A DNA stretch of 39,662 bases from Fidelibacterota bacterium. GTDB lineage: Bacteria > Fidelibacterota > UBA2242. Of the stretch, positions 16,182-33,601 are shown piece after piece (position 1 is the first letter of the stretch; each line of letters opens with the position of its first letter). The notes under the pieces were generated by a model that saw nothing but the letters and a program-made list of their open reading frames with translations, did no database searches and had not been told where the DNA came from. A program made the position numbers and the translations under genes. Location of the stretch: positions 1-39,662 of the forward strand of contig JAGLWX010000067.1 in the NCBI GenBank assembly GCA_023133185.1. Direction: 5' to 3'.

Positions 16182-16262
16182 ATGATTCCGATTAAACGAA
16201 TCATCACAATCACGACAATATTCATCGGACATAACCTGCTTATTCTGCAGACAGCCCGCGCA
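16182..16262 (+). repeat. 81-bp duplicate of the first 27 codons (signal peptide) of the giant gene
   Basis: atgattccgattaaacgaatcatcacaatcacgacaat..ctgcagacagcccgcgca matches 17643-17723 with a few mismatches (MIPIKRIITITTIFIGHNLLILQTARA vs MIPIKRIITITTIIFGLNLLILQTARA). The reading frame stops 7 codons later. Confidence 0.9.
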
Positions 16263-16279: not shown

Positions 16280-17077
16280 TTGAGATTGAGTAATAAAGAA
16301 AAACAAACCTTTCCTATTGAACAAATTAAACACCGTATTTATTTCATACGTGATGTACAAGTAATACTTGATTGTGATCTATCCATAATTTATGGTGTCG
16401 AAACCAAGCAGGTTAATAGAGCAGTTAAACGTAATGAAGATAGATTCCCAGAAGAATTTATTTTTCAATTGACTAAAAAAGAATGGCAAAACTTGAAGTT
16501 CCAAACTGGCACTTCAAGTGAACATGGCGGCAGAAGAAAACTACCATATGTTTTCACAGAACAAGGAGTCGCAATGCTCTCCGCGGTATTGAGGAGTGAT
16601 CGGGCGATAAAAGTAAGTGTGCAAATTATTAACGCCTTTGTTGCCATGCGAAAATTTATCGGCAGCAATGCAAAACTATTTCAGAGAATAAATCAAATTG
16701 AACTAAAGCAATTAACGGATAAAAGCGAAATCGATGTGAAATTTGAAAGAATCTTTGATGCTATCGAACAAAAGGAAATTTCACCGAAACAAGGCATTAT
16801 ATATAATGGCCAAATTTTTGACGCCCATGCCCTGGTGTCCAAAATTATACAGTCGGCAAAAAAGTCTATTATCATTATCGATAATTATATTGATGACAGC
16901 GTCTTAACATTATTAACGAATAGAAAAAAAGGCGTCCGGGCAAAAATATACACCAAATCCATTTCAAAACGATTAGCGTTAGATATTAAAAAGTTTAAAA
17001 ATACTGGGGAAGCTCAAATGAATACAACGAAAAAACCGATGAATCGGTTCCGGGTTTCATGGATGGTAACGTCATGA
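16280..17077 (+). CDS. ORF6N/KilA-N-like DNA-binding protein, probably 3'-truncated by the REP array
   Basis: TTG start at 16280 or 16286, preceded by aaggtg. The N-terminal pattern IYFIRDVQVILDCDLSIIYGVETKQVNRAVKRNEDRFPEEFIFQLTKKEW is typical of ORF6N proteins. The C-terminal part IIIIDNYIDDSVLTLL..IYTKSIS..LALDIKKF breaks off into repeat-derived sequence (TKKPMNRFRVSWMVTS). From memory, family members continue about 60-80 aa further. Confidence 0.6.
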   Translation: MRLSNKEKQTFPIEQIKHRIYFIRDVQVILDCDLSIIYGVETKQVNRAVKRNEDRFPEEFIFQLTKKEWQNLKFQTGTSSEHGGRRKLPYVFTEQGVAMLSAVLRSDRAIKVSVQIINAFVAMRKFIGSNAKLFQRINQIELKQLTDKSEIDVKFERIFDAIEQKEISPKQGIIYNGQIFDAHALVSKIIQSAKKSIIIIDNYIDDSVLTLLTNRKKGVRAKIYTKSISKRLALDIKKFKNTGEAQMNTTKKPMNRFRVSWMVTS

Positions 17078-17560
17078 TCCCCATGCTAAAGCATGGGGTT
17101 ACTCCTAGTCGCGCTTATCCGAATTATACGTGTAGGAATAACCCACCAATTTATTGGTGGTCAGTGGAATCCATAATCCAAAGCCCAAACCGTTTCAACG
17201 GTTTATTACATAACCATGATGGATCGGGATGGATATGTACCACCACACCAATCCCCATATATAAAACCGATGAATCGGTTCTTAGAGGTGGTGGTTGTGA
17301 CACCATATTCCCCATGCTAAAGCATGGGGTTACTCCTAGTCGCGCTTATCCGAATTATACGTGTAGGAATAACCCACCAATTTATTGGTGGGATAAAAAC
17401 GCCCCAACGCCATCCGATAACAACCCCCGATACATCGGGGCAGGCTGTTTCAACGGTTTAATAACGAAAATCCCCAGCCCCTTTCTGGCTGAGGGCAGCG
17501 AATGGGGAGAGAGACGGAACTCAACCCCCTGCCCCTTCTCTTTGAAAGAGAAGGGGAGAT
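17030..17560. repeat. REP/BIME-like palindrome array (two full H3-H4-H1-H2 units) immediately upstream of the giant gene
   Basis: H3 17034-17049, H4 17079-17098, H1 17142-17160, H2 17188-17203, H3 17265-17280, H4 17310-17329, H1 17373-17392, chimeric ccccgatacatcgggg 17425-17440, half H2 ~17447-17460, ccccttctctttgaaagagaagggg 17532-17556. The H3-to-H3 period is 231 bp. Confidence 0.85.
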
Positions 17561-17642
17561 CGCATCAATCATTGTTTTTTGCAATACTTTTTCCAGGGGA
17601 TGAGTTTGTAACCAACAACCAATCAAAATATGAGGATGTCCT

Positions 17643-20600
17643 ATGATTCCGATTAAACGAATCATCACAATCACGACAATAATCTTCGGACTTAACCTGC
17701 TCATTCTGCAGACAGCCCGCGCACAAGGCAATCGAATTGATGTTCCTGCCGATTACAGCGCCATCCAATCCGCTATCGATGCATCTACTAATGGCGATAC
17801 TGTCCTTGTCCAACCCGGCACCTACGTAGAGAATATCAACTTCAACGGCAAGAATATCGTTGTTGGGTCATTGACATTGACAACTGGTGACACCTCATAT
17901 ATATCCCAGACGGTGATTGATGGAAATCAAAATGGGAGTGTGGTTACGTTTAATAATAGTGAAGATTCCACAGCGGTATTGAGTGGCTTTACTATAACTA
18001 ATGGCTATGCCTCAGGAAACGACGACCGAGAAAGCCGTGGTGGTGGTATATATTGTGGTTATTATGCTGCTACCGACCCCAATCCCACATTAATGAACCT
18101 AATAATTAAGAATAATACAGCAACCCAACATGGAGGAGGTGTTGCTATTGATGTTGCAAATGTAAACTTAAAAAATATTAAAATAATTAATAATACAGCT
18201 GAAAGTGAGGGTGGAGGAATATATTGTCGTGATGCGAATAATACTTATATTTCCAATGCGTTGATATCTGGTAATACAGCCCATAGGCATGGTGGTATTA
18301 GATGTGAGAATTCTGATCCAGTACTCAATAATGTTACAATCACAAATAATACAGGAAGTGATGGTGGCGGTATTGGTTGCAGGTATTATTCTGATCCGGT
18401 ATTAATTAATACGATAGTTTGGAATAATCTACCGAATAATGTTTATTTCATTTTGGATTATCCTGAAAATTCGATTACTTTTTCCTACTCTGATATCCAG
18501 GGCGGCCAGGACAGTATTGTCACAAATGACAATGGCTCTGTGATCTGGCTCTCCGGCAACATTGATCTCTATCCCCAATTCGTCGATTCTGCCAATGGTG
18601 ATTACCGCTTAGCCGATACTTCTCCCTGCATCGCTATGGGAACCAACTCTATCGAAATCGATGGAACTACATACACGGCACCTACAATCGACCTCGACGG
18701 TAACCCCCGACCGATGCCAGCCGGAACTCGCCCTGATATGGGAGCGTATGAGAATCAGACCGCCTATCCCGACACCACCTACATCACCGGCGGCACGATC
18801 AGCACGGACAGCACCTGGAGCAAGGCCCGCAGCCCCTATGTGATCTCCGGGGATGTTACTTTAGCAAACGGTGCTACGCTTTCGATAGAGCCTGGAGTTA
18901 AAATATATTTTAAAGCAAATCACGATGATCAGAATTCAGGTTCAAATAATAATCTTTCAGAATTGAGAATTAATGATGGATGGCTAAAAGCTAATGGAAC
19001 AGACACTGATTCTATTGTTTTTACAAGTCGGTCATCTAATCCAAATGATGGGGATTGGGGAGGTATAAGACTTAATTCCAGTCAGCGAGACTCTCTACAG
19101 TATTGTGTGATTGAATATTCCGGTATTGGGTTGTTTTTTAATTCAAATGCTTTAATCAAACATTGTCGGATTTCCCATTCACCTGAACCTGGAATAGCAG
19201 TTGCCCAGAATTCCAATACCTCTGTCGATACAACTATAATATCAAATTGTAATATTTCAAATAATCAAGGTAATGGAGTATCATTTGCTGGTTCGAATCC
19301 CCTTAAACTACAGAAAAGTAAAATATATGCAAATCAGGCAAATGGCATTTACATTGGATGGGACTCACCAACTGAATTTTATTTAATTCAGTTTAATAAT
19401 ATTCATTCCAATTCAGGCTTCGATATATATAACGCGGTTCATGGGGATATCGATGCCCGCTACAACTACTGGGGCACCACCGCCACTGCTGAAATGTCCA
19501 CCACACCGGAACTCCATAATATCTCCACTATCCACGATTATTTCGACGACAACAGTCTCGGCACTGTCGATTACTCCCAATTCCTCGATGCGCCCTGGCC
19601 CGATGGTGAACCGGTCTTCCCCGACACCACCTACATCACCGGCGGGACGATCACTCAGGACAGCATCTGGACAAAAGCTCGGAGTCCATATAAGGTACTT
19701 CAAGATCTTACTATAAATAACGGTGCTATTTTAACAATTGAGGGCGGAGTTGAAGTCATAATAGCAACAAATACTAATCCTGAAGATCCTGGTATTTCAA
19801 TAATTATTGCAAATGGCTCAATCAACATGGAATCCGATCAAAGCAACTTGATCAGGTTTGTAACTGAGGATTCCACATATATGCCAACAGATGGTAACTC
19901 AGGATTAGGATGGAGAGGGTTATCATATTGGAATTCAGTAGCCGATGTGCATGATTGTATTATTGAAAATGCGAACACGGGAATTCAAATCTTAGCTGAT
20001 AGTTTTCATGTTGCAAGAACTATTTTTACAAATTGTTTCGCTGCCATGCACATTTCTTCCCACAACAGTGGGTTTAACAATGGTTCTATTCGTAATGTAA
20101 CAATTAGCAAAATGACTAATCCTCCTGGTGAACCCTCCGATTCGCCAATTGAAATATATGCTCCAGGAAATGTGTCAATTGAATACTCCAATATTGAAAG
20201 TATAAATAATTCTCAATATTCTGACATTGATGCCAAATACAACTACTGGGGCACCACCGCCACCGCCGAGATGTCCACCACGCCGGAACTCCACGATATT
20301 TCCACCATCCACGACTACTTCGATGATAATAGCCTCGGCACGGTGGACTACTCCCAGTTCCTCGACGCTCCCTGGCCTGATGGCGAACCGGTATTCCCCG
20401 ACACCACCTACATCACCGGCGGAACCATATCTCAGGACAGCACCTGGACAAAAGCACTAAGTCCTTATGTGATCTCCGGGGATGTTGTTGTGGGTAATGG
20501 AGCGACTCTGACGATTGAGCCGGGGGTGGAGGTGTTATTTGTATATAGAACTGATGCTATGGCCTCTGGTGCACACCTTGATTTAATCGAGATTACCATT

Positions 20601-23600
20601 AATGCTAACTCAAGATTAATCGCAAATGGAACTGAATCAGACAGTATTTTCATTAGATCACGTTCAAATCCAGAACAAATTTGTGGATGGGGAGCGATCT
20701 ATTTGAATTCAGATTCAAATGAAATTAATTATACAAAAATTGAAAATGCATATAAAGCACTCTTTGTTAATGGTGCCGTAAAAATGTATAACTCATATAT
20801 TAATAATTGCGCATTTGGTATATATAAAGAACTAAATGATAATTTTGATATAAAATATTGTACATTTTCAAATAATTATGATGCTGATATTTGGATGAAT
20901 GGAATCTATGGCGATGAACAAATTCAAAATAATAATTTTTATTCATTAATTGCTATTTATATCAATTATTATACAAATGATGTTTTATCTGCAACTAATA
21001 ATTATTGGGGCTCTGTTTCAACAAGTGAAATTTCAGAAGGAAATAACCCAAAAAACATCTCTTCAATTCATGATAAATATGATGATCTTCAAATGGGACT
21101 TGTCGACTACTCCCACTGGCTCGACGCCCCCTGGCCCGATGGTCAACCCGTAGGCGGCACCTATGGTGCCGAATTACTAATTACGAATTACGAATTTACT
21201 AATGAAATGCTTACCTACCATTCCGGGGACAGCATCTTCATCCAGATCACGGACCCTGACCGCAACAGCGACGACATCATTCCCGATCAACTCACTCTGG
21301 ACATCTGGAGCGAAACCGAGACCACTCACGAAACCCTGACCCTCAACGAGACCGACCTCGCCACCGGCATCTTCCGGGGCTGGATCAAATTAGACGACGC
21401 CACCGGTGTGCCCTTCCCGGACGGGCAGCTGCAGCTCAGTCATGGCGACTGGATGTATTTTCAGTATATTGATCCGGCGGATGATTGGGGAAATGTGGAT
21501 ACTTTACTTGATGGTCGTGTTTTTGAACTGACCGTGAAGAATGGATACGCACTTGCTGATGATGAGACTTGGACCTTATCAAATGAACCATATTTGATCA
21601 CTGGCGATATTCAAATTTATACTTTTAAAACTCTTACGATTGACCCGGGTGTAAGAATCTATGTTTTACCATATCATGATGATTTTCAAGTGAATTATGA
21701 AACCAACTTAAGCGATATTGAAGTAAATGATGGCACATTGAACGCTGTTGGAACAATTAGTGATAGTATAATCTTTTCTCCTTATTCAATTACAATTCAT
21801 CCAAATATGTGGCGTGGAATAATATTTACTGGATCTGAAAACACAAACGGTGAAATTCGATACTGTCGAATAGAAGGGGCAGTGCGAGGAGTTGATATTG
21901 AAGGAAACTCTCCTATTATTAGTCACTCAAATATAAGAAATAATGAACAAGGCGTTTGGATAAGTGGAAATTGGAGTAGTGATGTTCCGAGGGATAATTC
22001 AAAGATTAAAAGTTGTAATATATCAAAGAATGAGCATGGTATATATGTTGTTGGTTCAACGACTATTAAAGACAACGTAATAAAAGATAACAAATACGGA
22101 ATTTTCCTTGGTCAAGGAGGATTTCCAGTTTCAATTACTGGTAATACACTATCAAATAATGAATGTACCAGTTTATATGTTAGGCCAATTGATGTATCAG
22201 AAGTAATATTTTCGAATAATAATATTCCCTATAATGGTGGAAATTCTGTTATAGACTATTATTCCCAAGAGGAGTTGATTGCTAAATACAATTATTGGGG
22301 CACTGCAACCACCTCTGAAATGAATTCCGGCAGTAATCCAAAAAATATATTCGCTATTCTGGATAAGTTCGACGATCAATCCAGAGGAATCGTCAACTAC
22401 TCTCGTTGGCTGGACGCACCCTGGCCCGATGGCACACCGGCGCCGGGCGGATATACCGGGGAGATGAATTTCATCTATTCCGACGGCAGCGACGCCTGGG
22501 GCTACAATGAAGGCGACACGCTCTATGTCAAACTCTACGATCCCGATCTGAATACCGATATCAATACTCCTGAATATGCCACCGTCGAGGTCTGGAGCCA
22601 ACTGGAAAACGTCCCGGAGATGCTCAATCTCAACGAAGTTGACGCCGACACCGGGCTATTCATCGGCTGGATGCTGTGTGACAGTCAGACCGGTTTCGCC
22701 ATGACCGATGGAGTTTTACAGGTGGATCAGGGGAACCGGGTTTGGGTACAATATACCGATGCTGTAGATGATTGGAATAATCAGAATACAACAACTCAGG
22801 ATTCGGTTACCTATGATTTCCGTATTCGGGAATATGAGTCGGATGAGAATACGGTTTTGTTGCTGCATTTTAATGAAGGGGAAGGACAATTATTAAATGA
22901 TGCTAGTGACTTTAGCAATAATGGTCAGCTCGGGCCATCTGTTAATCAAGATTCACAGGATCCAGTATGGATTGCTGGAATTAATGATTTTGGACTATCA
23001 TTTGATGGATCTGACGACTATGCTTTCGTAAATCATATTGATAAATATAATTTAACCGATTTGACAATTGATTTTTGGATTTTTTCTGATGCATCTATGG
23101 GTAATTGGGGATGTATTGTTTCTAAAGAAAATAATGATTCACCACTTGCTTGGCCATTTAGTATCCATATTGAATCCAGTTCTGGGAGAGTGATGCATAA
23201 TTTTTCTGTTGATGTTGGGGGGCATCATTCGTTCACATCAGAAAAAAGTATTAAAGAAGTTGGCTGGCATCATGTGAGAGTTGTAAGAAATGACACATTA
23301 AAAACTGTAAAAATATACATCGATCAAATACTTGATAATACGTGGAATTATAATGGAACAATAGATCAAAACGACCAAATTATTGGAATTGGAAGCAATC
23401 CTACCGGAGGAGGATGGGGCTTTCCATTTAAAGGGTTAATTGATGAGCTAAGAATATCGAATATCGCCCGGACTTCCTTTGATTATGAATACACCGAAAA
23501 TCCTCCTGGCAAGGTCAGCGACCTCGCTGTTATCGACTCTACCTCCCAGTCCATCACACTACAGTGGCATGCGCCCGGCGCGGATAATTACACCGGTACC

Positions 23601-26600
23601 TGTGATCTCTACGACCTGCGCATATCCACCAGCCTGATTGATTCCGCTAATTTCGCCTCGGCTTCTCCTGTTTCCTGTTTCCTTTCTCCTTCCTCCGCCG
23701 GTACGTTACAGTCGTTCATGGTGGATAGTCTGAATTATGCTACGACCTACTATTTCGCCCTGAAAGCCAAAGATGACGAAGGCTTATGGTCGCCGATCTC
23801 CAATGTTGTCGCTGGGCACACCGAACCCAAAGACGAAACGCCGCCGGGGACCATCAGCGATCTGGCGCAGAGTTCCGTTTCCAAGCGCAGCGCGATCATC
23901 ACCTGGACCGCACCCGCCGATGACGGGCAATCGGGACGTCCTATCTCCGGCTACACGGTCTATTACGCCACTTTCCCGATCAATGGCACTAATTTTATGA
24001 CGGCTGACTCCCTTGCTCCTCTGCACCTCAGCCCCCTCTTTCCGGGCGTTGCGATTTTCGATACACTTACCAACTTATTACCCAATACCCTTTACTACGC
24101 CGCCGTCCGCTCTTACGACGAAGTCCCCAACTGGTCGGCGCTTTCCAATGTTCTGCAACTCACCACCGCAGCGGTTCCGGTGATTGCAGACGTCACATTT
24201 CCAATGAATGCCTACGACGCGCAGCGCAGCCGCAGTGTGCCCTATAATGGCGCGACGCTGGGAACCTTCCGCTGGACCTTCAATACCGGCGCGGCGGTGT
24301 CATCGTCGCCGGTAATCGACAATGACGGGACGGTTTATGTCGGTTCCGAAGATGGTAAGGTCTATGCCGTCGATCCCGGCGGGAATCAGCTGTGGAGCAA
24401 GAGTCTTGGCGAGGGCGTCTTCGCAGCGCCCTGCATCGGCACGGAGAATCATCTCTTCGTTACATGCAAGAACAATAAAGTCTATGCACTGAATAAAACC
24501 ACCGGCGATACGCTCTGGACTTACACCACCGGTGGGCAAATCTACAGTTCACCGGTCATCAGTTCTTTCGGTTATCTCTATGTGGGCAGTCTCGATAATA
24601 AAGTCTATGCCCTGACAAGTGACGCCGGCGATTTGGTCTGGACTTTCACCGGCAGCGGGAAGTTTTACGCTTCACCGGCGTTGACTATTGACGAATCCAA
24701 ACTGATTATCGGCGATCAATCAGGCAAACTCTACGCATTGAATCCTCATACCGGCGAAAAACTCTGGGAATACCCGGCGAATTCTGCTATCTATGCCAAT
24801 GCTGCGGTGGACTCTACTGGCAATATATATTTCGGCGCCCAGAACGGCAGGCTCTATTGTCTCTCATCAATCGGCGCTTACAAGTGGGATTACAATACCG
24901 GCGGTGCGATCTTCTATGCCTCACCGACGCTGGGTTATGCTTCGGTATCCACAAAAGCAAGCATGGTAAATGATGCTACTGATATGTTAAAATCCTTTAA
25001 GAAAGTTGATACAGGAAACAGGAATCAGGAAACAGGAATCAGGAAAAGGGAATCAGGAAATTGGAAACTGGAAACCGGAAAGTCGATAAATCGAAAAGCG
25101 GCAATGCGGAACGATAATACTCTATTAAAATCCAAAGATCAAAGTACTGCCAAAATTCCATCTTCCGGTCTCCGTTCTTCCGTCTCCGGTCTCCTGTCTC
25201 CTGTCTCCTCAATCTCCGGTTCTTCTGCTGATGTGATCTACATCGGTTCCGACGGTCAGAAACTGCACGCCGTGAATGCGTCAACGGGAGCCAATATCTG
25301 GTCCTACACGACGCTCGGCAATATCCGCAATGGCGCGGTGCTGAGCGCCAACGGTTTTCTTTATTTCGGTTCATCCGATGATTTGCTGTACTGTATCAAG
25401 ACCGATGGCAGCCGCCGCTGGGCATATAAGACCGGTGGTGATCTTTATACCTCCAATCCGGCGATGGGGCTGGACGGCGCGGTCTATATCGGCTGCTACG
25501 ACAATAAACTCTACGCCGTGGGCGAATACCTCGAAGTGGTCGATCCGGTGGTGGTCTCCACCTATCCGGCGATGAACTCCTGCACTATGCCGGTTGATAC
25601 GACGATCCGGGTGAAATTTAATACCATTATCAATATGTTCACTGTTGATGAAAACTCATTCTATGTCTATGGTAAACAGCATGGCAGATATAGCGGAACA
25701 TATGCCTGGAGTGCTGCTGACTCCGCAGTAGTATTCACATCGAATGATAATTTCTTTTATGGTGAGGAGATTACTGTCCTGCTTACTGATGGAATTAGGA
25801 GTGTGAGTGGGGGGAACTATCAGAATTTGCGAATTACTTTTTATACGAAACCAATACCACAAAATGAAACCTTGTCCTCAACTCCTAGTTGGGTTACCTC
25901 GGAAATATTTAACAATGAAGATATAGCACTTGCAGATTTGAATGGTGATGGTTATCTGGATATGGTAGCCTTACGTGGATATGATGAACCTAGGCCTTCT
26001 CTGTATATATACCTGAATGCCGGTGGATATTTTAATCAGACCGCGACTTATTCAATTTTTGTTGATGCTCATGGCCTGATAGATGTGGTGGATATTGACA
26101 ATGACGGAGATCCGGATATTTCATTTTACAGCAATGAAAATAGCCGGATAGAGATATATAAGAATACGAGTGGATTTTTGTCCATGACACCGCAGATTAT
26201 CAATGCTCGTGGATTTTATTCCTGGGGTGATCTAAATAATGACTCATATCCTGATCTAGCTGTAAAAACTGATTATAATAGGATTTATCTAAATAATTCA
26301 GGGACTATTGAAAGTGACCCAGTTTGGAGCGAATACACAGGGGAAGCATATCATGCTGAACGATGTATCTGGGTGGATTACGATAGTGATGGGGACCAGG
26401 ATATTCTTTTTGGATTAAAGCTTTATCGCAATAACAATGGAACGGTTGGTACAGTTGTTTACCAATTGGGAGCAGGACTTCCGAACGGAGAAACACAAGA
26501 CTATGCAGTAGGTGATATTGATAGGGATGGATATCCAGAGATAGGTTTAGCCTCACCGGTCTATCCATCATCGAGTAAAGTATATAAATATAATGGGATA

Positions 26601-29600
26601 GATGCATTCACAGAAATTTGGTCGAGTAGCCATGGGACATCTAGATCAATAGAATTTGTTGATGTGGATGGAGATGGATATCTGGATTTGTATCTAGGAA
26701 CATTTGGATCAAAAGGGAGAGAAAATTACACTCAGGATGTAGTGTATTTAAATCACAGCGGAGAAATAAGTACAGTACCTGATTGGGCAACCGATGAGGT
26801 TACGAACACGCTTAAGAGTGCATGGGGAGATATAGATAGAGATGGGGATATGGATCTGGCATTGGTAAGTAATACACAAATTAGGGAACCTATATATGTA
26901 TATTTCAACCACCTCGAATGGCGCTTCAACGTCTCAATCGATGAAATGACCCAGCCCGAATATTCCGGAACTTTTGCGGTTCCTTATACCATTGATAATC
27001 CCGGCAACAATTCGACGTCGTTGATCTGTCGATATTCAACCAATAACGGCACTACCTGGAATATTCCGACAACCGTCAGCGATACTACGGATATTGGATC
27101 GTCAGGTTACGAAGGAACAATTGCCTGGCAGTCGGCGGTTGACCTGCCGGGTCTGGATATTGAAGATGTCGTTTTTGCTATCACGCCCTGGGACAATGCA
27201 AATACCGGCAAGTCCGATACAGTGCATATCCATGTGGACAATAACCTGCCGCCAACTGTTGATATGGTTGCAATCTCCGGTGAACAGAGCGGCGATATAC
27301 CAATTACGGTCAATTATAATGACGCAGAGAATGATACACTGACATTGACGGTGGAATATGCCGAAGTTGGTGATCAGAACTGGTTAGCGGCTTCAGTCGA
27401 TGCCGATATAAATGCTCTCACAGGATCAAGTCTTGCCCTGACGTGGAATACATTGACCGATCTGCCTGATATGTCCGGCGCTTACCGGTTCCGGGTGACT
27501 GCCCGTGATAAGGATCAGGGTGTGCCGGATACACTGGCAATTCGGATTGACAACTATCATAAACAGTCCATCTCTTTATCTATCAGTGAGAGTCCCGTCC
27601 GGGATACACTGGATATAAATTATTCGATTACCGATCCCACGAATGACACTCTGCGACTGATCTGCCGTTACGCCGTCAATGCGCAATTTGATGATAAAGC
27701 GTCTTCAACTAAAAGTGGATTAATCGGCAACGATCCGGTTTCCGGTACCGGTCGATTTCCTACGAAATCGGCGAAAAAAGGCAAACCGTTTAAATCGTCA
27801 AAATCTGCTGAATCAGTTGAAATTGTAAATCCTGTTCCGATAAGTCGGGATTCCTACGGAATTAGTCCTGTAAAAGGCATTACTTCGGCGGAATGGCATC
27901 TGCCCTACATTGTCAGCGACACACTTCAGATCACGCCTGATGAATACAGCGGGATTCTGCAATGGTACACCCATTACAACCTGCCCGGAATGGATATTGA
28001 CACTGTCGTGCTGACAATTCATCCCGACGATTATTGGGCAGTGGGAACAGGTGATACGCTGATCTTTGAATTGGACAATAATCGCAGTCCGGTAGCGAGT
28101 ATCTCACCCATTGCCGGCGAAGAATCCGATAGCGTCACTATTCATTATTCGATAACTGATACGGAAGGTGATCAGGCGTCAATCTATTGTGAATTCAAGC
28201 GCAAGTATGAATTGAACTGGCATCCTGCAACCGTTTTTGGCGATACCGTCAACCTTGCGACCGGAGATCATTCATTAATATGGTTGTCTTCAAATGATGT
28301 CCCCGCTTATGTTGGACACGTGATTTTCCGGATTACTCCCAAAGATAACGATCAGGGTGAGGCGACGTCCATTGAAATATTAATAGACCAGGTCGGCGCG
28401 CCGATGGTGACAGCGCTTTCAGTTGGCAGCGCTGATGAATATTCCGGTGATATCAGCGTCGCTTATGTCATTACCGATGATGAAAGCGATGCTGTGGATT
28501 TGTCTGTTGAGTATTCGCTGAGCGATGGACAAGGCTGGCAGACGGCGACCGTCGGCGGCAATGTTACGGGCATTACACCTGAGAATTATACCGGGTCCTT
28601 TGTGTGGCACTCGGTAACTGACGCCGCAGGTGTTGATTCACCGGCGGTATGCCTGCGAGTGACGCCGTCGGATGGACATTCAGGCGGAGCTCTGATTAGC
28701 GAAGCCTTTCACCTGGATAATAATGAAGCGCCTGAAATTGCTCTGAATGTAGAATATACGGAACTCAATGGAATGATAGACCTGCCTTACGTAATCACGG
28801 ATGCGGAATCTGATTCTATCAGGATGAAATTGCAATATTCCTCCGATAAGATGAACTCCTGGAATGATTGTACGCTGGAGAGTGATTCCATAATTGGCGC
28901 AGACGAATATTCCGGTTCTGCTTCATGGAATTCGGTAACAGATTTACCGGGAATTGATATTGACTCGCTTTTTGTAATGCTGCAATGCTTTGACAATGAT
29001 TCCGGTAATATTGATACCGCAATGCTTCATATAGATAACAATGCTGTTCCGGTTGTGGAGATTGCACCGCTCATGACCGAACAGCACGATACGGTAATAA
29101 TTCAATATACTGTTTTTGACGAAGAATCTGACCAATTGACTGTAAATGCAAGTTTCAGTTATGATAATGGACAAAACTGGAGTTCGTCAACATTATCCGC
29201 AGGCGGTAAAAACAGTGTCGGAGGAAAGTTGGAAACCGGCGGGCAACTTGTCTGGAATTCCTTTACTGATCTGCCTGATACAAATTGCCAGGACCTGATG
29301 TTCAGGATTCGGGTTTTTGATAATGATGAAGGTATTGATGATACAATTACTTTTGATCTGGATAATTATCAATTACAGAGCATAGACATTGCCGACATTA
29401 CAGAAGAACAGAGAGATACGGTTACATTCGATATTACCCTTACAGATGAAAGCAATGATACCAGCGACCTGAATATTGCTTACAGCATTGACGGGGGAAT
29501 TGACTGGCTGGAGAGTATTGCAATTGATGGAGAAATGAATAATTATCTTCCGGGTAATTTCCAATTGCAATGGAGTTCTATGGACGACCTGCCGGGTTTT

Positions 29601-32357
29601 GACGGCGAAGTCCGGGTAAGAATCGAGCCTGATGATGGCTGGGGAACCGGCAGAAGTGATACAGTAATTTTTCATCTTGACAATAACCTGCCGCCGGTAA
29701 TATCTCTGGATGAGATTACAGATGAGCAGCACGATATTGTGGAATTAGCATTTACAAGCACAGATGACGAATCGGATTCTTTGACAATTATTCCCCTTTT
29801 CAGCAAAGATAATGGCGCCAATTGGGATAGCGCATCCTATTCTTTTTCATCCAAAGCCAATGGAAACAGTTCAAATGAATTACATGAAATTGCGATAAAT
29901 GACAGAAAGATCTTCCAGGGAAAATCTCTGATAGAAAAGGGCGCTCGGAATATGGTCTGGTATTCCGGGGATGATATTCAGAACGAAGATATTGACAATA
30001 TGCTTTTCAGATTAGACGTATATGATAATGACCGCGGCTCAAGCGATACTATCACCTTTCATCTCGACAATTTTCAAAATCACTCCATCGCTCTTATGCC
30101 TTTCACCGATGAGCAATCGGGCGATGTCGCTATTTCCTATATAATTAACGATACAACAGGCGATCGAATAAATCTCAGTGTTGATTACAGCCTTGATATG
30201 GGCAATACATGGCAATCGCCGAGCATTACGGATGATCTCAATAATATCATTGATTATGATAACTCATTCACCTGGAATTCTGCTACTGAGACGGAAGGAA
30301 TGGATAATGAATCGGTCTTCATTCGTGTTATTTCTGATGATAGCTGGGAGTCTGGCAAAGGTGATACCGTGGAATTTCACCTCGATAATAACCTTCCGCC
30401 GACTGTTGTGTTATCAATACCGCAAACAGAACAACATTTCGATATTACGGATGGATATTTTGAATACAACGATGTGGAAGACGATTCCATCTCTTTCAAC
30501 TTATTCTACTCAATTGACGGCATCAATTATCTGCAACCCGATACGCAAGATGTGGTGCATGATGAAATTAACAATAGAGTGGATTTTACCTGGAAAACGC
30601 AGACGGACTTACCGGATACGGAACTTACAGATGTGATTTTTAAAGTAACTATTTCCGATAATGATCCGGGAACTCCGGATTCCACTTTAAATCTCCATAT
30701 TGATAATGATCAAGGGAAAATTATTTTAACTGAATTGCCGGGCGAACAGACCGGTGAAATAAAAATTCCCTACAACATTCAGGAATCAGGTAATGATACA
30801 CTGTCGCTGCAAGCCTTCTATCGCTTGAAAGACGCCAGTGATTGGGTTGTAGCCACGCTTGCTGAAACCGGTGATATCCTGCCCGCCATGTATGATTCGG
30901 TTATCATCTGGCAGAGCGATGTGGATTTACCTCATCAATGCCTGGAAGAAGTTGCAATCCGTGTAATTCCGGCTGACTATTGGGGCGCTGGTAAAGCAGA
31001 TACAATAACATTGGATATTGATAATGAGATTGGTCCGGTTGTGACTTTCCACAGTCCCTATTCCCTGGATCAGGATACATCCGGCTGGAAGGAATCGATC
31101 TTTGTCATTTTCGACCACGATATTGATACAAATACCGTTTATGGTCAAATATCGATCAACAGTCAGGTAGTGGGCGCTATGTCCCATCAATTATATTTTA
31201 TCAGCAAGACTGAGCTGGAAATAATCCCCGATGGTTTTTACGGGTCACTCGATACGATTACGGTTGCTTTAAGCGCCGGGATTACCGATGAGTTTGGTAT
31301 TCCTCTCGATGGAAACCTTAACGGCGATCCCGCTGGCTCACCGGCAGATGATTATTCGTTTCAATTCAGGACTGCCCTGTTAGGCGATTATGATACCGAT
31401 GGTGATGTTGATCTTGTGGATTTTTATACTTTACGTGACGCCTGGACTGCGGAACCGCCCGATTACAGTAAGGAACTGGGTCCTGTGACAGGCACATTGC
31501 CTCAATACGTTCTCACACCGGATAACCAGTTCAATTTAAAAGACTTGTTGGTGCTTATTTCCGCCTGGAACTGGACCTTTGATCACTCCTATAATACCTT
31601 TGCCTCCTTTGGTCTGGCAAAATCGATTTCCAATGAACAATCACCGATTTCACTAATCACCAATTATGAAAAAGATGGTAAATGGAATGCCGCGATGCAA
31701 TCGGGGCTTGCCCTTGAATTGAATGTGAATCTGAAAGACGCCTGTATCGGTTCTGAGATGGTCATTCGTTATGATCCGGAAATATTGGAGTATAACCGGT
31801 TTGTGCCCTTGAATATCGATAAAGAATCGGGTGACTGGATTGTGTTGGATCGCCATGACCCTGAAGAAGGGTTAATCCTGGTAACCGTATTTAAGATGGG
31901 CAATGTGGATTATGATATCAGCGCCTTTAAGTCTATCGGTCGTCTTGATTTTACCACAAAACAGAACACCTTCACCGAGGTAGAATATTTGACAAATCTC
32001 TGTATGGAAACAGCTGATACCATCTATTTTGCAAAGCAACATAGTTCATATTCATTTGAAACCAGTCCGCCGGTTCCAGCCCGGTTTGCATTACATCAGA
32101 ATTTCCCGAATCCTTTTAACCCAATAACCACTATCCGATACGAATTACCAAAGGAATCGGAAGTTCGTCTGGCGATTTTCAACCTGAACGGTGAAATCGT
32201 GAAGGATTTGGTTCATGAACAAAAGCAACCCGGATATTATGAGGTACGCTGGGACGGTACAACTAATTCGGGAACGCTGGTTTCATCAGGAATTTATTTC
32301 TATCGGGCCCAGGCAGGCAGATATGTGAAGACCAATAAGATGGTGTTGATGAAATAA
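17643..32357 (+). CDS. Giant (4904 aa) multidomain secreted surface protein with T9SS C-terminal sorting domain
   Basis: Uninterrupted ORF with a signal peptide. Approximate domain order is as follows. About five right-handed beta-helix modules lie at 17730-22285 (GGGIYC, NNTA repeats; DLDGNPRP..RPDMGAYE). They are separated by conserved NYWG..LDAPWPDG linkers. A LamG/ConA-like domain is at ~22850-23480 (LLLHFNEGEG..LSFDGSDDYA..DELRISN). Two Fn3 domains are at ~23500-24170. An 8-blade PQQ/BamB-like propeller is at ~24268-25530 (GKVYAVD, NKVYALN..). An SbsA/Big_5-like Ig domain is at ~25540-25860. FG-GAP/VCBS repeats are at ~25900-26900 (DLNGDGYLDMV, DIDNDGDPDI, DVDGDGYLDL). The 12 Asp-box Ig-like repeats span 26919-31037. 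A second Big_5-like domain, a dockerin, a cohesin-like domain and the CTD FALHQNFPNPFNPITTIRYELP..GIYFYRAQA..KMVLMK complete the protein. Confidence 0.92.
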   Translation: MIPIKRIITITTIIFGLNLLILQTARAQGNRIDVPADYSAIQSAIDASTNGDTVLVQPGTYVENINFNGKNIVVGSLTLTTGDTSYISQTVIDGNQNGSVVTFNNSEDSTAVLSGFTITNGYASGNDDRESRGGGIYCGYYAATDPNPTLMNLIIKNNTATQHGGGVAIDVANVNLKNIKIINNTAESEGGGIYCRDANNTYISNALISGNTAHRHGGIRCENSDPVLNNVTITNNTGSDGGGIGCRYYSDPVLINTIVWNNLPNNVYFILDYPENSITFSYSDIQGGQDSIVTNDNGSVIWLSGNIDLYPQFVDSANGDYRLADTSPCIAMGTNSIEIDGTTYTAPTIDLDGNPRPMPAGTRPDMGAYENQTAYPDTTYITGGTISTDSTWSKARSPYVISGDVTLANGATLSIEPGVKIYFKANHDDQNSGSNNNLSELRINDGWLKANGTDTDSIVFTSRSSNPNDGDWGGIRLNSSQRDSLQYCVIEYSGIGLFFNSNALIKHCRISHSPEPGIAVAQNSNTSVDTTIISNCNISNNQGNGVSFAGSNPLKLQKSKIYANQANGIYIGWDSPTEFYLIQFNNIHSNSGFDIYNAVHGDIDARYNYWGTTATAEMSTTPELHNISTIHDYFDDNSLGTVDYSQFLDAPWPDGEPVFPDTTYITGGTITQDSIWTKARSPYKVLQDLTINNGAILTIEGGVEVIIATNTNPEDPGISIIIANGSINMESDQSNLIRFVTEDSTYMPTDGNSGLGWRGLSYWNSVADVHDCIIENANTGIQILADSFHVARTIFTNCFAAMHISSHNSGFNNGSIRNVTISKMTNPPGEPSDSPIEIYAPGNVSIEYSNIESINNSQYSDIDAKYNYWGTTATAEMSTTPELHDISTIHDYFDDNSLGTVDYSQFLDAPWPDGEPVFPDTTYITGGTISQDSTWTKALSPYVISGDVVVGNGATLTIEPGVEVLFVYRTDAMASGAHLDLIEITINANSRLIANGTESDSIFIRSRSNPEQICGWGAIYLNSDSNEINYTKIENAYKALFVNGAVKMYNSYINNCAFGIYKELNDNFDIKYCTFSNNYDADIWMNGIYGDEQIQNNNFYSLIAIYINYYTNDVLSATNNYWGSVSTSEISEGNNPKNISSIHDKYDDLQMGLVDYSHWLDAPWPDGQPVGGTYGAELLITNYEFTNEMLTYHSGDSIFIQITDPDRNSDDIIPDQLTLDIWSETETTHETLTLNETDLATGIFRGWIKLDDATGVPFPDGQLQLSHGDWMYFQYIDPADDWGNVDTLLDGRVFELTVKNGYALADDETWTLSNEPYLITGDIQIYTFKTLTIDPGVRIYVLPYHDDFQVNYETNLSDIEVNDGTLNAVGTISDSIIFSPYSITIHPNMWRGIIFTGSENTNGEIRYCRIEGAVRGVDIEGNSPIISHSNIRNNEQGVWISGNWSSDVPRDNSKIKSCNISKNEHGIYVVGSTTIKDNVIKDNKYGIFLGQGGFPVSITGNTLSNNECTSLYVRPIDVSEVIFSNNNIPYNGGNSVIDYYSQEELIAKYNYWGTATTSEMNSGSNPKNIFAILDKFDDQSRGIVNYSRWLDAPWPDGTPAPGGYTGEMNFIYSDGSDAWGYNEGDTLYVKLYDPDLNTDINTPEYATVEVWSQLENVPEMLNLNEVDADTGLFIGWMLCDSQTGFAMTDGVLQVDQGNRVWVQYTDAVDDWNNQNTTTQDSVTYDFRIREYESDENTVLLLHFNEGEGQLLNDASDFSNNGQLGPSVNQDSQDPVWIAGINDFGLSFDGSDDYAFVNHIDKYNLTDLTIDFWIFSDASMGNWGCIVSKENNDSPLAWPFSIHIESSSGRVMHNFSVDVGGHHSFTSEKSIKEVGWHHVRVVRNDTLKTVKIYIDQILDNTWNYNGTIDQNDQIIGIGSNPTGGGWGFPFKGLIDELRISNIARTSFDYEYTENPPGKVSDLAVIDSTSQSITLQWHAPGADNYTGTCDLYDLRISTSLIDSANFASASPVSCFLSPSSAGTLQSFMVDSLNYATTYYFALKAKDDEGLWSPISNVVAGHTEPKDETPPGTISDLAQSSVSKRSAIITWTAPADDGQSGRPISGYTVYYATFPINGTNFMTADSLAPLHLSPLFPGVAIFDTLTNLLPNTLYYAAVRSYDEVPNWSALSNVLQLTTAAVPVIADVTFPMNAYDAQRSRSVPYNGATLGTFRWTFNTGAAVSSSPVIDNDGTVYVGSEDGKVYAVDPGGNQLWSKSLGEGVFAAPCIGTENHLFVTCKNNKVYALNKTTGDTLWTYTTGGQIYSSPVISSFGYLYVGSLDNKVYALTSDAGDLVWTFTGSGKFYASPALTIDESKLIIGDQSGKLYALNPHTGEKLWEYPANSAIYANAAVDSTGNIYFGAQNGRLYCLSSIGAYKWDYNTGGAIFYASPTLGYASVSTKASMVNDATDMLKSFKKVDTGNRNQETGIRKRESGNWKLETGKSINRKAAMRNDNTLLKSKDQSTAKIPSSGLRSSVSGLLSPVSSISGSSADVIYIGSDGQKLHAVNASTGANIWSYTTLGNIRNGAVLSANGFLYFGSSDDLLYCIKTDGSRRWAYKTGGDLYTSNPAMGLDGAVYIGCYDNKLYAVGEYLEVVDPVVVSTYPAMNSCTMPVDTTIRVKFNTIINMFTVDENSFYVYGKQHGRYSGTYAWSAADSAVVFTSNDNFFYGEEITVLLTDGIRSVSGGNYQNLRITFYTKPIPQNETLSSTPSWVTSEIFNNEDIALADLNGDGYLDMVALRGYDEPRPSLYIYLNAGGYFNQTATYSIFVDAHGLIDVVDIDNDGDPDISFYSNENSRIEIYKNTSGFLSMTPQIINARGFYSWGDLNNDSYPDLAVKTDYNRIYLNNSGTIESDPVWSEYTGEAYHAERCIWVDYDSDGDQDILFGLKLYRNNNGTVGTVVYQLGAGLPNGETQDYAVGDIDRDGYPEIGLASPVYPSSSKVYKYNGIDAFTEIWSSSHGTSRSIEFVDVDGDGYLDLYLGTFGSKGRENYTQDVVYLNHSGEISTVPDWATDEVTNTLKSAWGDIDRDGDMDLALVSNTQIREPIYVYFNHLEWRFNVSIDEMTQPEYSGTFAVPYTIDNPGNNSTSLICRYSTNNGTTWNIPTTVSDTTDIGSSGYEGTIAWQSAVDLPGLDIEDVVFAITPWDNANTGKSDTVHIHVDNNLPPTVDMVAISGEQSGDIPITVNYNDAENDTLTLTVEYAEVGDQNWLAASVDADINALTGSSLALTWNTLTDLPDMSGAYRFRVTARDKDQGVPDTLAIRIDNYHKQSISLSISESPVRDTLDINYSITDPTNDTLRLICRYAVNAQFDDKASSTKSGLIGNDPVSGTGRFPTKSAKKGKPFKSSKSAESVEIVNPVPISRDSYGISPVKGITSAEWHLPYIVSDTLQITPDEYSGILQWYTHYNLPGMDIDTVVLTIHPDDYWAVGTGDTLIFELDNNRSPVASISPIAGEESDSVTIHYSITDTEGDQASIYCEFKRKYELNWHPATVFGDTVNLATGDHSLIWLSSNDVPAYVGHVIFRITPKDNDQGEATSIEILIDQVGAPMVTALSVGSADEYSGDISVAYVITDDESDAVDLSVEYSLSDGQGWQTATVGGNVTGITPENYTGSFVWHSVTDAAGVDSPAVCLRVTPSDGHSGGALISEAFHLDNNEAPEIALNVEYTELNGMIDLPYVITDAESDSIRMKLQYSSDKMNSWNDCTLESDSIIGADEYSGSASWNSVTDLPGIDIDSLFVMLQCFDNDSGNIDTAMLHIDNNAVPVVEIAPLMTEQHDTVIIQYTVFDEESDQLTVNASFSYDNGQNWSSSTLSAGGKNSVGGKLETGGQLVWNSFTDLPDTNCQDLMFRIRVFDNDEGIDDTITFDLDNYQLQSIDIADITEEQRDTVTFDITLTDESNDTSDLNIAYSIDGGIDWLESIAIDGEMNNYLPGNFQLQWSSMDDLPGFDGEVRVRIEPDDGWGTGRSDTVIFHLDNNLPPVISLDEITDEQHDIVELAFTSTDDESDSLTIIPLFSKDNGANWDSASYSFSSKANGNSSNELHEIAINDRKIFQGKSLIEKGARNMVWYSGDDIQNEDIDNMLFRLDVYDNDRGSSDTITFHLDNFQNHSIALMPFTDEQSGDVAISYIINDTTGDRINLSVDYSLDMGNTWQSPSITDDLNNIIDYDNSFTWNSATETEGMDNESVFIRVISDDSWESGKGDTVEFHLDNNLPPTVVLSIPQTEQHFDITDGYFEYNDVEDDSISFNLFYSIDGINYLQPDTQDVVHDEINNRVDFTWKTQTDLPDTELTDVIFKVTISDNDPGTPDSTLNLHIDNDQGKIILTELPGEQTGEIKIPYNIQESGNDTLSLQAFYRLKDASDWVVATLAETGDILPAMYDSVIIWQSDVDLPHQCLEEVAIRVIPADYWGAGKADTITLDIDNEIGPVVTFHSPYSLDQDTSGWKESIFVIFDHDIDTNTVYGQISINSQVVGAMSHQLYFISKTELEIIPDGFYGSLDTITVALSAGITDEFGIPLDGNLNGDPAGSPADDYSFQFRTALLGDYDTDGDVDLVDFYTLRDAWTAEPPDYSKELGPVTGTLPQYVLTPDNQFNLKDLLVLISAWNWTFDHSYNTFASFGLAKSISNEQSPISLITNYEKDGKWNAAMQSGLALELNVNLKDACIGSEMVIRYDPEILEYNRFVPLNIDKESGDWIVLDRHDPEEGLILVTVFKMGNVDYDISAFKSIGRLDFTTKQNTFTEVEYLTNLCMETADTIYFAKQHSSYSFETSPPVPARFALHQNFPNPFNPITTIRYELPKESEVRLAIFNLNGEIVKDLVHEQKQPGYYEVRWDGTTNSGTLVSSGIYFYRAQAGRYVKTNKMVLMK
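24945..25226 (+). repeat. In-frame nucleotide-level inverted repeat (7/14-nt periodic arms) inserted in a propeller loop of the giant ORF
   Basis: The left arm is five tandem 14-mers at 25013-25082 (aggaaacaggaatc x2, aggaaaagggaatc, aggaaattggaaac, tggaaaccggaaag). The right arm, 25163-25225, has reverse complement gaagaac cggagat tgaggag acaggag acaggag accggag acggaag aacggag accggaa. The centre contains the tcgataaatcga palindrome (25083-25094). Confidence 0.8.
26919..31037 (+). repeat. Twelve tandem ~105-aa Asp-box-containing Ig-like domain repeats (protein-level repeat, diverged DNA)
   Basis: Repeat ends were mapped on DNN(L/A/E/R)xP or DN[YF]Q motifs. The units are 26919-27254, 27255-27566, 27567-28091, 28092-28403, 28404-28733, 28734-29051, 29052-29378, 29379-29696, 29697-30083, 30084-30401, 30402-30719 and 30720-31037. 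Each carries an S-x-D-x-G-x-x-W-type motif (YSLSDGQGW, SYDNGQNW, SIDGGIDW, SKDNGANW, SLDMGNTW). Confidence 0.85.
31383..31570 (+). other. Dockerin-like segment of the giant protein
   Basis: LGDYDTDGDVDLVDFYTLRDAW ... TPDNQFNLKDLLVLISAWNW. Confidence 0.6.
31640..32050 (+). other. Cohesin-like domain of the giant protein
   Basis: ALELNVNLKDACIGSEMVIRYDPEILEYNRFVPLN..GLILVTVFKMG..IGRLDFTTK. The IRYDPEILEY motif resembles the cohesin (F/I)RYDPxxLE core. Confidence 0.55.
32070..32354 (+). other. T9SS C-terminal sorting domain of the giant protein
   Basis: PVPARFALHQNFPNPFNPITTIRYELPKESEVRLAIFNLNGEIVKDL..GIYFYRAQAGRYVKTNKMVLMK. Confidence 0.8.
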
Positions 32358-32364
32358 TTTTGAT

Positions 32365-33450
32365 CTTTCTCTCATTCTGTCAGTTAAGATAAGCCAGCCC
32401 GATAACTCAACCCCTCATTCCGGCTTTTCAAAAGGCATTGATTTTGGCGCTCTCCCCTTCTCTTTGAAAGAGAAGGGGACGGGGGATGAGTTCTATTCTC
32501 CCATCTTGGGCTATTTCGCCATAGGATTAACCCGCCAATTTATTGGTGGGAATACGATACCACCATACCCGACCCAGGATAACCGTTTCAACGGTTTAAT
32601 AATGGAAAACCCCAACGAATCGTAGCAAACCGATAAATCGGTTCGTAGAGGTGGTGGTTGTGACACCGTATTCCCCACGCTAAAGCATGGGGCTACTCCT
32701 AATCGAGATTCATTAAAAAACTCGCATAGGACTAACCCACCAATTTATTGGTGGGATATAAACGCCACAACGCCTCCCGATAACAACCGTTTCAACGGTT
32801 TATTACCTAACCATGATGGATCGGGATGGATATGTACCACCACACCAATCCCTATATATAAAACCGATAAATCGGTTCGGCATTTCGACGAATCGGGGTG
32901 ATGATGAGTCCACCCCTCTCTCTCAGCACACTTCAGTGTATTTTCTCCCGTTCCGTCAGTTAAGACACAGGCTACAGAGCAGAGCCCTGTAGCCAGCCCG
33001 ATAACTCAACCCCTCATTCCGGCTTTTCAAAAGGCATTGATTTTGGCGCTCTCCCCTTCTCTTGCAAAGAGAAGGGGTCGGGGGTTGAGTTCATTATTTC
33101 TCCCCTACACAATCCTCTTCCAAAAAAGGGACGGGGGTTGAGTTCTATTCTCCCATCTTGGGCCATTTCGCCATAGGATTAGCACCATGCTTTAGCATGG
33201 TGTGAGAGAGAGAATGAGTACCCCTTCAACGCACTTCAGTGTATTTTCTCTCGTTCCGTCAGTTAAGACACAGGCTGCAGAGCGGAGCTGTAGCCCGATA
33301 ACTCAACCCCTCATTTCGGCTTTTCGAAAAGCATTGGTTTTGGCGCTCTCCCCTTCTCTTGCAAAGAGAAGGGGTCGGGGGTTGAGTTCATTATTTCTCC
33401 CCTACACAATCCTCTTCCAAAAAAGGGACGGGGGATGAGTTCTATTCTCC
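32365..33450. repeat. Repeat cluster: 3' trailer copy 2 (32365-32702), a further H1-H2-H3 unit, and two more L-element copies (~32925-33180, ~33225-33450)
   Basis: Hairpins: 32454-32478 (ccccttctctttgaaagagaagggg), H1' 32531-32550, H2 32581-32596, H3 32628-32643, H4 32673-32692, H1 32736-32755, H2 32785-32800, H3 32862-32877. Further hairpins: ggctacag/ctgtagcc 32970-32994, ccccttctcttgcaaagagaagggg 33053-33077 and 33350-33374, caccatgctttagcatggtg 33183-33202. Confidence 0.85.
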
Positions 33451-33601
33451 CATCAACTAACAATCGAGAAGTCAGAGAGTGAACTCCTCATCCATTTAAC
33501 TTCACTAATATCTTCCTCATCGCACTTCAATACGTTTTTACCTGAAACTTTCATGACGTCTCATAGTTAAACGGTGTAAAAGTAACAGGAGAAAAAAGAA
33601 T

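Follow-up and report, generated by a model that had tools for sequence, protein, structure and literature searches.

How can tandem repeats whose unit is not a multiple of three lie in frame inside a conserved domain of a bacterial protein? This question is raised by a stretch of DNA of 39,662 nucleotides (the window) from a Fidelibacterota bacterium (NCBI GenBank assembly GCA_023133185.1, contig JAGLWX010000067.1, positions 1 to 39,662 of the forward strand). A giant gene on the forward strand (17643..32357), which encodes a secreted protein of 4904 amino acids, carries an in-frame insert of 282 nt, or 94 codons (24945..25226), in the turn between strands A and B of the sixth blade of a β-propeller. 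Two arrays of 7-nt units (heptads) face each other inside the insert. I consider it moderately probable that the insert is an intragenic, in-frame case of the heptameric simple-sequence repeats of bacteria, which often occur as convergent inverted pairs. Inserts of this kind are already known, on the one hand from heptameric repeats in convergent pairs and on the other from selfish or repetitive DNA that lies in frame within genes; it is the location that is unusual.

An insert in one blade of a propeller

The giant protein, identified from the listing of open reading frames (ORFs), ends with a C-terminal sorting domain of the type IX secretion system (T9SS) type. A Pfam search with the allele on a second assembly (see below) detected β-helix repeats, a PQQ propeller, Big_5, FG-GAP-like repeats, repeats of about 100 amino acids, and the T9SS sorting domain. 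The propeller (24168..25562, forward strand; residues ~2176-2640 of 4904) is of the eight-bladed PQQ/BamB type according to Pfam (PF13570, 3e-65; PF13360, 7e-42) and AlphaFold2. When its sequence was cut at the conserved tryptophans, eight blades were obtained, seven of which have the motif SSP-x6-8-(V/I/L)Y(V/I/F)G. The remaining one, blade 6, reads ASPTLGYAS-(94 residues)-ADVIYIGS. In an alignment with 40 homologues, P253 and G355 are almost invariant within the blade motif, and the spacing between them is about 100 residues here versus about 6 in the consensus SSPAIGxDGTIYVGS. The insert (codons 2435-2528 of the 4904-codon ORF) falls in the turn between the strands at domain residues 254-256 and 356-360. 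Both the alignment spacing and the open frame agree with a previous interpretation made from the letters alone (the sequence-only reading), which had described an in-frame 282-nt insert within a propeller blade.

Does the propeller still fold? AlphaFold2, run on the 40-homologue alignment, gave pLDDT (predicted local distance difference test) values of 94-99 for the blades, with a mean of 82.4 for the propeller. The insert (domain residues 261-351) had values of 32-50 against blades above 94, and a single low-confidence helix was placed at residues 263-278. Thus, the insert is predicted to be a disordered loop on an otherwise intact propeller. A structure prediction had been suggested by the sequence-only reading, and its outcome supports the view that the insert is tolerated as a disordered surface loop.

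The insert was compared with a second allele on scaffold_192 (65 kb, of which about 42 kb was examined) of the ENA metagenome ERZ23498665. The scaffold is 99.99% identical to the window over 4271-25095 and 100% identical over 24988-26903. Since scaffold_192 carries the insert base for base, an assembly artefact is unlikely, although a single sample may lie behind both assemblies. No exact record of the giant protein was found on look-up, and a search with the propeller gave just paralogue-level matches of at most 40% identity. The HtrA protein encoded downstream of the giant gene assigns the organism to Marinimicrobia (Candidatus Neomarinimicrobiota). Relatives whose HtrA proteins are 95%, 80%, and 78% identical lack the whole genomic island in which the giant gene lies (window 11950-33525). 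In the first two, a gene for a C25 peptidase is followed directly by htrA with a gap of 79-115 nt, and in the third, other genes occupy the island position. These closest relatives are without the whole giant gene and offer no empty insert site for comparison.

Two facing heptad arrays

The insert has four parts. The left segment (24945..25010, 66 nt, GC content 0.32) is not repetitive, has no 7-nt periodicity, and encodes VSTKASMVNDATDMLKSFKKVD, the peptide modelled as the low-confidence helix. No pairing was seen between it and the centre, right arm, or right flank, and none of the 148 loci fetched in this study is similar to it. The left arm (25011..25081), purine-rich on the coding strand, consists of about ten (A/T)CAGGAA heptads, equivalent to 4.9 copies of CAGGAAACAGGAAT. 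In order, its heptads are ACAGGAA, ACAGGAA, TCAGGAA, ACAGGAA, TCAGGAA, AAGGGAA, TCAGGAA, ATTGGAA, ACTGGAA, and ACCGGAA. Tandem Repeats Finder (TRF) reported a period of 7 at 25011-25081 (10.1 copies, 78% matches, consensus ACAGGAA) or, alternatively, a period of 14 at 25012-25080 (4.9 copies, 85% matches). The central spacer (25082..25155, 74 nt, GC content 0.36) is AT-rich and aperiodic, with TCGATAAATCGA at 25083-25094. The right arm (25156..25226), pyrimidine-rich on the coding strand, consists of about 9-10 degenerate TCTCC(G/T)G heptads, the complement type of ACAGGAG. Its reverse complement reads GGAGACA/GGAGACC/GGAAGAT, which may also be phased as GACAGGA/GACCGGA, and includes one 8-nt and one 6-nt unit. 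TRF found an array of period 7/21 at 25156-25208 (at least 6.4 copies, 81% matches).

The two arms are 74 nt apart, and the purine-rich array is the 5′ one on both strands, which is the convergent orientation. At lag 7, the left arm has an autocorrelation of 0.78 and the right arm one of 0.62, compared with about 0.22-0.24 for the flanks. With up to two mismatches, the 14-mer occurs seven times in the window versus 0.27 expected. The arrays are degenerate; their longest perfect runs are about 2.5 copies of the 14-mer or about 2.9 heptads. A GGG is present in just one unit (AAGGGAA), the units being otherwise AGGAA(T/A)C and GGAGAC(A/C). The GC content of the insert is 0.32-0.42 versus 0.53-0.55 in the flanks, the right arm (0.55) being the exception.

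These results largely confirm the anatomy given by the sequence-only reading: five tandem 14-mers, or ten (A/T)CAGGAA heptads, in the left arm; the reverse complement of about nine heptads in the right arm; and a repeat that, as judged from the 7/14-nt periodicity and the inverted arms, is a feature of the nucleic acid. One claim has to be corrected. The encoded peptide had been called aperiodic, and it has a 7-residue period (TGNRNQE/TGIRKRE/SGNWKLE; SSGLRSS and VSGLLSP), because three heptads amount to 21 nt.

The arms can pair with each other. The energy of the arm-arm duplex is −53.9 kcal/mol versus −35.3 ± 4.4 kcal/mol for shuffled sequences (z = −4.2). The right-arm consensus is one base off the left-arm unit, which leaves one A-C mismatch per heptad on the forward strand and one G-U pair per heptad on the reverse strand. 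When both strands were folded as RNA, the whole insert reached −70.6 kcal/mol (z −2.4) on the forward strand, with 45 arm-arm pairs including one G-U, and −88.4 kcal/mol (z −4.5) on the reverse strand, with 56 pairs including eight G-U. The arms pair better on the reverse strand, through G-U pairs; one A-C or G-T position per heptad had been foreseen by the sequence-only reading. With DNA parameters, a hairpin or cruciform was not significant on either strand (z −1.6 and −1.85). In a sliding fold of 300 nt along the window, the intergenic arrays of repetitive extragenic palindromic (REP) sequences, not the insert, rank among the most structured regions.

An open frame without a protein homologue

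Why is the frame open? Across the 282 nt, frame 0 of the forward strand is the only open one; each of the other five carries 3-5 stops. Both arms lack TAA, TAG, and TGA in every forward frame. In the opposite orientation, TCAGGAA would become TTCCTGA and close every frame. Since the arms are stop-free, the openness needs explaining just for about 47 non-repeat codons and for a length divisible by three. Both are accounted for by selection that keeps the giant protein intact. A frameshifted reading terminates at about 25080-25122, inside the central spacer or bordering it. Simulated changes of ±7 and ±14 nt lead to a stop at amino acids 2480-2494, while a loss of 21 nt preserves the frame. Thus, the insert survives in the gene through stop-free units, a length that is a multiple of three with an open spacer, and a β-hairpin turn that tolerates 94 disordered residues.

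The insert peptide is rich in serine and lysine (S18, K11, T7, N7, G7). No protein among 5.8 billion shares three 5-residue words with it, and no Pfam family matches it. A HMMER search of 1.84 billion representatives gave two matches. One of them, P0241, a repeat protein of eukaryote-like type, was discarded as spurious, its low-complexity similarity being unrelated. The other, P0242, is itself a heptad-encoded stretch, found in a PabB-like enzyme that is described below. Since the peptide has no homologue except this heptad-encoded stretch, it is not a conserved protein loop. It is probably a passenger without a conserved role at the protein level, and would have no function of its own.

Heptad arrays in other genomes

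Is this array family peculiar to the present genome? One genome per GTDB species was scanned for four consecutive NNAGGAA units. Arrays were found at 120 loci or more, in at least 120 species genomes belonging to Cyanobacteria, Bacteroidota, Firmicutes, Acidobacteriota, Planctomycetota, Proteobacteria, and other groups. A pair was then defined as at least three GGAR units plus an inverted array within 400 nt, and was called convergent when the purine-rich array comes first on either strand. Among the matches listed, the fetched loci contain 14 convergent pairs and one divergent pair, and the insert has the convergent order. The pairs span Clostridia, Bacteroidales, Selenomonadales, Cyanobacteria, and Poriferihabitaceae; their arms are shared between genomes and their spacers are unrelated. 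Convergent examples at L008 (3379-3606), L051 (6208-6303), L089 (1997-2068), L113 (6810-6914), L010, L055, and L115 have stops in every frame and are intergenic.

An exact 28-mer consisting of two of the 14-mers of the window was found in ten metagenome contigs of very different G+C content. In four of them (L123, L125, L127, and L129), an inverted arm of the TTCCTGA type lies 10-90 nt downstream, and several of the arrays begin within a few bases of a stop codon. Was the 28-mer spread horizontally? Mixtures of AC and TC units already exist in about 2% of the NNAGGAA arrays of the sampled genomes, so the recurrence needs no horizontal transfer. The contigs are unrelated outside the arrays, with the exception of L123 and L125, which come from one metagenome and share the arms and the spacer (163 nt at 72%). 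Horizontal spread among the ten contigs was thus rejected.

Do such arrays change in length? An orthologous intergenic array of Raoultella ornithinolytica (L086, 3400-3460) and of a metagenome relative (L126, minus strand, 5910-5975) has six heptads in one and seven in the other, with unit substitutions. This one-heptad difference directly documents slippage by seven nucleotides at a time.

Two further arrays are in frame. In L148 (205-366; P0242), about 22 ACAGGAA/ACAGGAC heptads lie within a gene for a PabB-like chorismate-binding enzyme, between GSIGYI and DFNIAIRT. A pabC-like gene is located downstream of it. The other array, of six GAATTAG heptads (42 nt; EELGIRNEELGMGNE), follows the N-terminal domain in a G+C-rich gene for a GH78 α-L-rhamnosidase from a metagenome-assembled genome (MAG) of Hydrogenedentota (L073, 2508-2542, minus strand). 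Thus, stop-free purine-rich heptad arrays recur inside real genes. Among the in-frame cases found, a complete convergent pair is present in the window alone.

Relation to known heptameric repeats

Two Xanthomonas genomes have 186 and 183 (GGGANTN)n arrays, and the unit in Nostoc is GGGGAYT (Rehm et al. 2015, PMC4692102). In 70-75 cases, two Xanthomonas arrays are in convergent orientation, one per strand. Most arrays (89-93%) are intergenic, mostly less than 50 nt from a stop codon, and 7-11% overlap ORFs. The position is conserved for 83% of the arrays across two species with differing lengths, and the single or paired type is usually kept. Their function is unknown, and most are transcribed (PMC4692102). 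In many prokaryotes, heptamers are the commonest of the long simple-sequence repeats according to Mrazek et al. (2007; cited in PMC4679880 and PMC4692102), and TAACTGA arrays have been described by MacGregor (PMC4679880).

The insert resembles the Xanthomonas and Nostoc heptamers in having tandem 7-nt units with a conserved GGA core and otherwise variable positions, arranged in degenerate arrays within the range of 2-26 units. The two arrays face each other with the purine- or G-rich strand 5′ on each strand. Within the family, lengths vary by 7 nt at a time, no function is known, and a minority of members overlap ORFs. The window unit AGGAATC is one base off the Xanthomonas GGGAATC. Two features of the heptamer class, a tandem array of at least two heptamers and two nearby arrays in convergent orientation, are found in the insert. 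On the other hand, both arrays, with their spacer, belong to the reading frame of a conserved domain and sit in its interior, instead of lying less than 50 nt from a stop codon. In the roughly 45 kb of this genome that was read, the heptad family is not abundant: long arrays (at least six copies) occur there just at this locus, and none was found in 228 kb of related loci.

How might the insert have been formed? Slipped-strand mispairing of the DNA, by 7 or 14 nt at a time, would have given rise to both arrays and maintained their periodicity. An inverted duplication or a template switch would relate the two arms to each other. Each arm would then have been homogenised independently, giving a constant A versus G difference per heptad; the constancy of this difference suggests that the arms were homogenised separately after they had diverged. 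The A/G difference is one event spread by slippage and is uninformative about which strand functions.

Several points weigh against this assignment. Neither the 66-nt left segment nor the 74-nt centre is made of repeats, and both differ from the flanks in composition; since these 140 nt are non-repetitive and AT-rich, pure slippage in situ is insufficient and some insertion or capture event is needed. The insert differs from the Xanthomonas class in having GG rather than a G-tract of GGG, so that no G-quadruplex is possible, and in not being intergenic. The island is rich in REP arrays and has a Y1 transposase gene, which makes a mobile-DNA origin plausible in this context. The 10-mer CGATAAATCG, located in TCGATAAATCGA of the central spacer, is common to six intergenic REP hairpins of the window. 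Finally, no orthologue of the giant gene was found, and the insert-free ancestor is deduced from the other blades and distant homologues alone.

Other explanations

These points lead to the possibility that the insert is a hairpin-type, non-autonomous mobile element, like a MITE (miniature inverted-repeat transposable element), a REP, or a Rickettsia palindromic element (RPE), which was inserted as a single 282-nt unit and is tolerated in frame. This was the proposal of the sequence-only reading, and it now appears rather unlikely, if still worth weighing. It would account for the 140 non-repeat nt, and three of the four parts of the insert are compositionally foreign. The inverted arms, the 10-mer shared with the REP hairpins, and the dense REP arrays and Y1_Tnp gene of the island are in line with it, and the shared arms and spacer of L123 and L125 indicate that at least one heptad-armed hairpin is multi-copy. 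RPEs, as summarised in PMC10969869 after Ogata et al. (2000), provide a precedent: palindromic DNA of about 100-300 nt is inserted in frame in genes. They form families of many copies in which both the sequence and the encoded peptide are conserved; the added peptide is exposed on the surface of the protein, whose fold is compatible with its function.

The insert is likewise an in-frame palindromic insert at a structurally tolerant surface site. It differs from RPEs in that neither a second copy nor a related peptide was found, and its arms are tandem heptads rather than unique inverted repeats; the multi-copy state with conserved DNA and peptide that characterises RPEs is not seen. The search for further copies, which had been suggested with the proposal, found none in the window, in the ~42 kb of scaffold_192, or in 228 kb of Marinimicrobia loci (own and related), and the parts other than the arms have no match in the 148 fetched loci. 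Two weak signals were set aside: the only other match to the arm motif in the window (23664-23684, minus strand, ~18-20 nt, 90-94%) falls within a coding segment of Fn3-like type and appears fortuitous, and a period-7 match of TRF at 21170 is ordinary coding sequence. The right arm reaches the right junction while the left arm begins 66 nt inside the left one, so the arms are not terminal inverted repeats. On inspection for a target-site duplication, the junctions GGTTATGCTTCG|GTA and CCGGTTCTTCT|GCT share just GGTT.T.

Is the centre of the insert a REP? The sequence-only reading had recognised there the core of a REP hairpin. The 10-mer is indeed shared, but the match is barely above chance; shuffled inserts share some 10-mer with a repeat family in 4-9% of trials (P about 0.04-0.09). 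The stem in the insert has 4 bp versus at least 6 in the REPs. REPs and bacterial interspersed mosaic elements (BIMEs) are short, G+C-rich, intergenic palindromes in many copies that are linked to a REP-associated tyrosine transposase (RAYT), a description that does not suit the insert. The REPs of the window are short G+C-rich hairpins in composite intergenic arrays without heptads. The likeness of the insert to MITEs, REPs, and BIMEs lies in its inverted arms, its small size, the REP hairpins and Y1 transposase gene nearby, and the 10-nt core of one REP type, whereas its left arm is not terminal, no target duplication is evident, and just one copy was found in the sequence at hand. Foldback (FB) transposons also have long inverted arms of short tandem repeats around a unique centre. 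They are eukaryotic, kilobase-sized, and have a known transposase association, and the insert differs from them in showing no evidence of mobility.

Could the arrays instead be a switch? Slippage of a heptad or a 14-mer would truncate the protein before the T9SS domain and thereby toggle the display of the C-terminal 2400 residues. I regard such phase variation as improbable. The simulated changes described above do stop translation in the insert or, for the loss of 21 nt, keep the frame, the host is a giant surface protein within a variable island, and heptad number differs at the orthologous intergenic array of Raoultella. Contingency loci, such as the CTCTT repeats of Neisseria opa and the tetranucleotide repeats of Haemophilus, likewise have a unit that is not a multiple of three within the ORF of a surface protein, where slippage switches the frame. 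However, the tracts of the insert are degenerate, with few perfect copies, quite unlike the usual hypermutable kind; each has an inverted counterpart, and they lie in the middle of the gene, not near its 5′ end. No length polymorphism was found between the two assemblies, which may share a sample. For the Xanthomonas class, phase variation was judged unlikely by the authors of the study (PMC4692102).

A role at the RNA level, which the sequence-only reading had named as an alternative along with variation by slippage, is slightly less probable still. It might be an antisense transcript or an mRNA hairpin with an influence on translation, such as a pause between blades, or a stabilising or terminating structure on the minus strand. 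The stable minus-strand fold, in which eight G-U pairs stand where the sense strand has A-C mismatches, would suit such an element, as would weak promoter-like hexamers on both strands of the insert and the transcription of most Xanthomonas repeats (PMC4692102). However, the asymmetry between G-U and A-C stems from one substitution spread through the array; being a single event, it carries no statistical weight. The sense-strand fold is just z −2.4, no Rfam family matches the insert at E ≤ 1, no terminator-like site lies within it, and there are no homologues to supply covariation.

Least probable of all is a functional protein loop, a flexible K/S-rich linker or binding segment in which the DNA periodicity is incidental: the 94 codons open amid five closed frames, a composition typical of flexible surface segments, and K/S-rich extra segments in other repeats of the giant protein would agree with it, but a period of 7 nt is no codon multiple, inverted arms are meaningless at the protein level, the loop is modelled as disordered, and neither protein set nor Pfam holds a relative.

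The surrounding island

The strain-specific island (21.6 kb) contains REP arrays, the giant gene, and one gene each for CsgG/PEGA, Y1_Tnp, and ORF6N. Its edges are near-identical composite REP arrays (11950-12330 and 32360-33470). Dense composite hairpin arrays occupy intergenic positions 11960-12330, 15780-16110, 17030-17560, 32360-33470, 4132-4186, and 35182-35250 of the window, and their hairpin types include AACCGATAAATCGGTT, CCCACCAATTTATTGGTGGG, CCCCATGCTAAAGCATGGGG, AACCGTTTTAACGGTT, and CCCCTTCTCTTTGAAAGAGAAGGGG. The Y1_Tnp gene (IS200/RAYT type, 147 amino acids, ~15344-15787) adjoins hairpin arrays.

Several other irregularities were observed in the giant gene. Its first 82 nt (17642-17723), comprising the start and signal-peptide codons, are duplicated with 95% identity at 16181-16262, 1.46 kb upstream. 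The two copies are separated by REP hairpins and a gene with an ORF6N domain (16280-17077). The duplication looks like an insertion into the 5′ end of the giant gene that restored the start. Two of the ~100-residue C-terminal repeats have extra K/S-rich segments of 67 residues (27678-27876) and about 35 residues (29841-29943). In the former there are two small hairpins, CGATTTCCTACGAAATCG and GGATTCCTACGGAAT, whose loop is CCTACG; heptads and a significant fold are absent from both segments. In scaffold_192, the giant gene encodes 5366 instead of 4904 amino acids, since a 1386-nt unit (window 25872-27257; L136 885-3656) is doubled in tandem. This is either a real length polymorphism or a repeat collapsed in one of the assemblies.

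Beyond 36611, the window (36612-39662) is not collinear with scaffold_192 and the NCBI MAG contig, both of which continue with a PDDEXK_3 gene and a gene for isoleucyl-tRNA synthetase. The window has there an ORF (36722-38209) that joins CDP-alcohol phosphatidyltransferase and SRP54/FtsY domains. The break is either a rearrangement or an assembly join. In scaffold_192 (L136 13251-16394), the isoleucyl-tRNA synthetase gene is split into two ORFs of 132 and 906 amino acids, while relatives have a single gene for 1047 amino acids; a frameshift or a sequencing error may be the cause.

A wider view of convergent heptad pairs

The most promising observation of this study is a general one, the strong convergent-orientation bias across phyla, for which neither the literature consulted nor the present data offer an explanation. 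A bold and, in my estimate, improbable idea is that convergent purine-rich heptad pairs are the footprints of a directional process that operates across bacterial phyla and is able to strike inside genes. At a DNA break, the process may add repeats to both 3′ ends before these are joined, in some cases along with filler DNA that was captured, or it may involve fold-back small mobile DNA. The idea fits three observations, none of which requires it: the 14:1 bias, the occurrence of one and the same 14-mer in unrelated genomes, and the three unrelated in-frame cases. If it is true, just the in-frame, stop-free events would persist, as new disordered loops of proteins.

Returning to the heptameric-repeat assignment favoured here, such repeats are usually treated as intergenic curiosities. 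The insert of this Fidelibacterota bacterium indicates that they, and even a complete convergent pair, can sit in frame in a conserved domain and be translated as a disordered loop. Together, the insert and the PabB-like and rhamnosidase cases point to a general route by which repeat dynamics at the DNA level add low-complexity loops to bacterial proteins, and this route would be distinct from that of the multi-copy RPEs.

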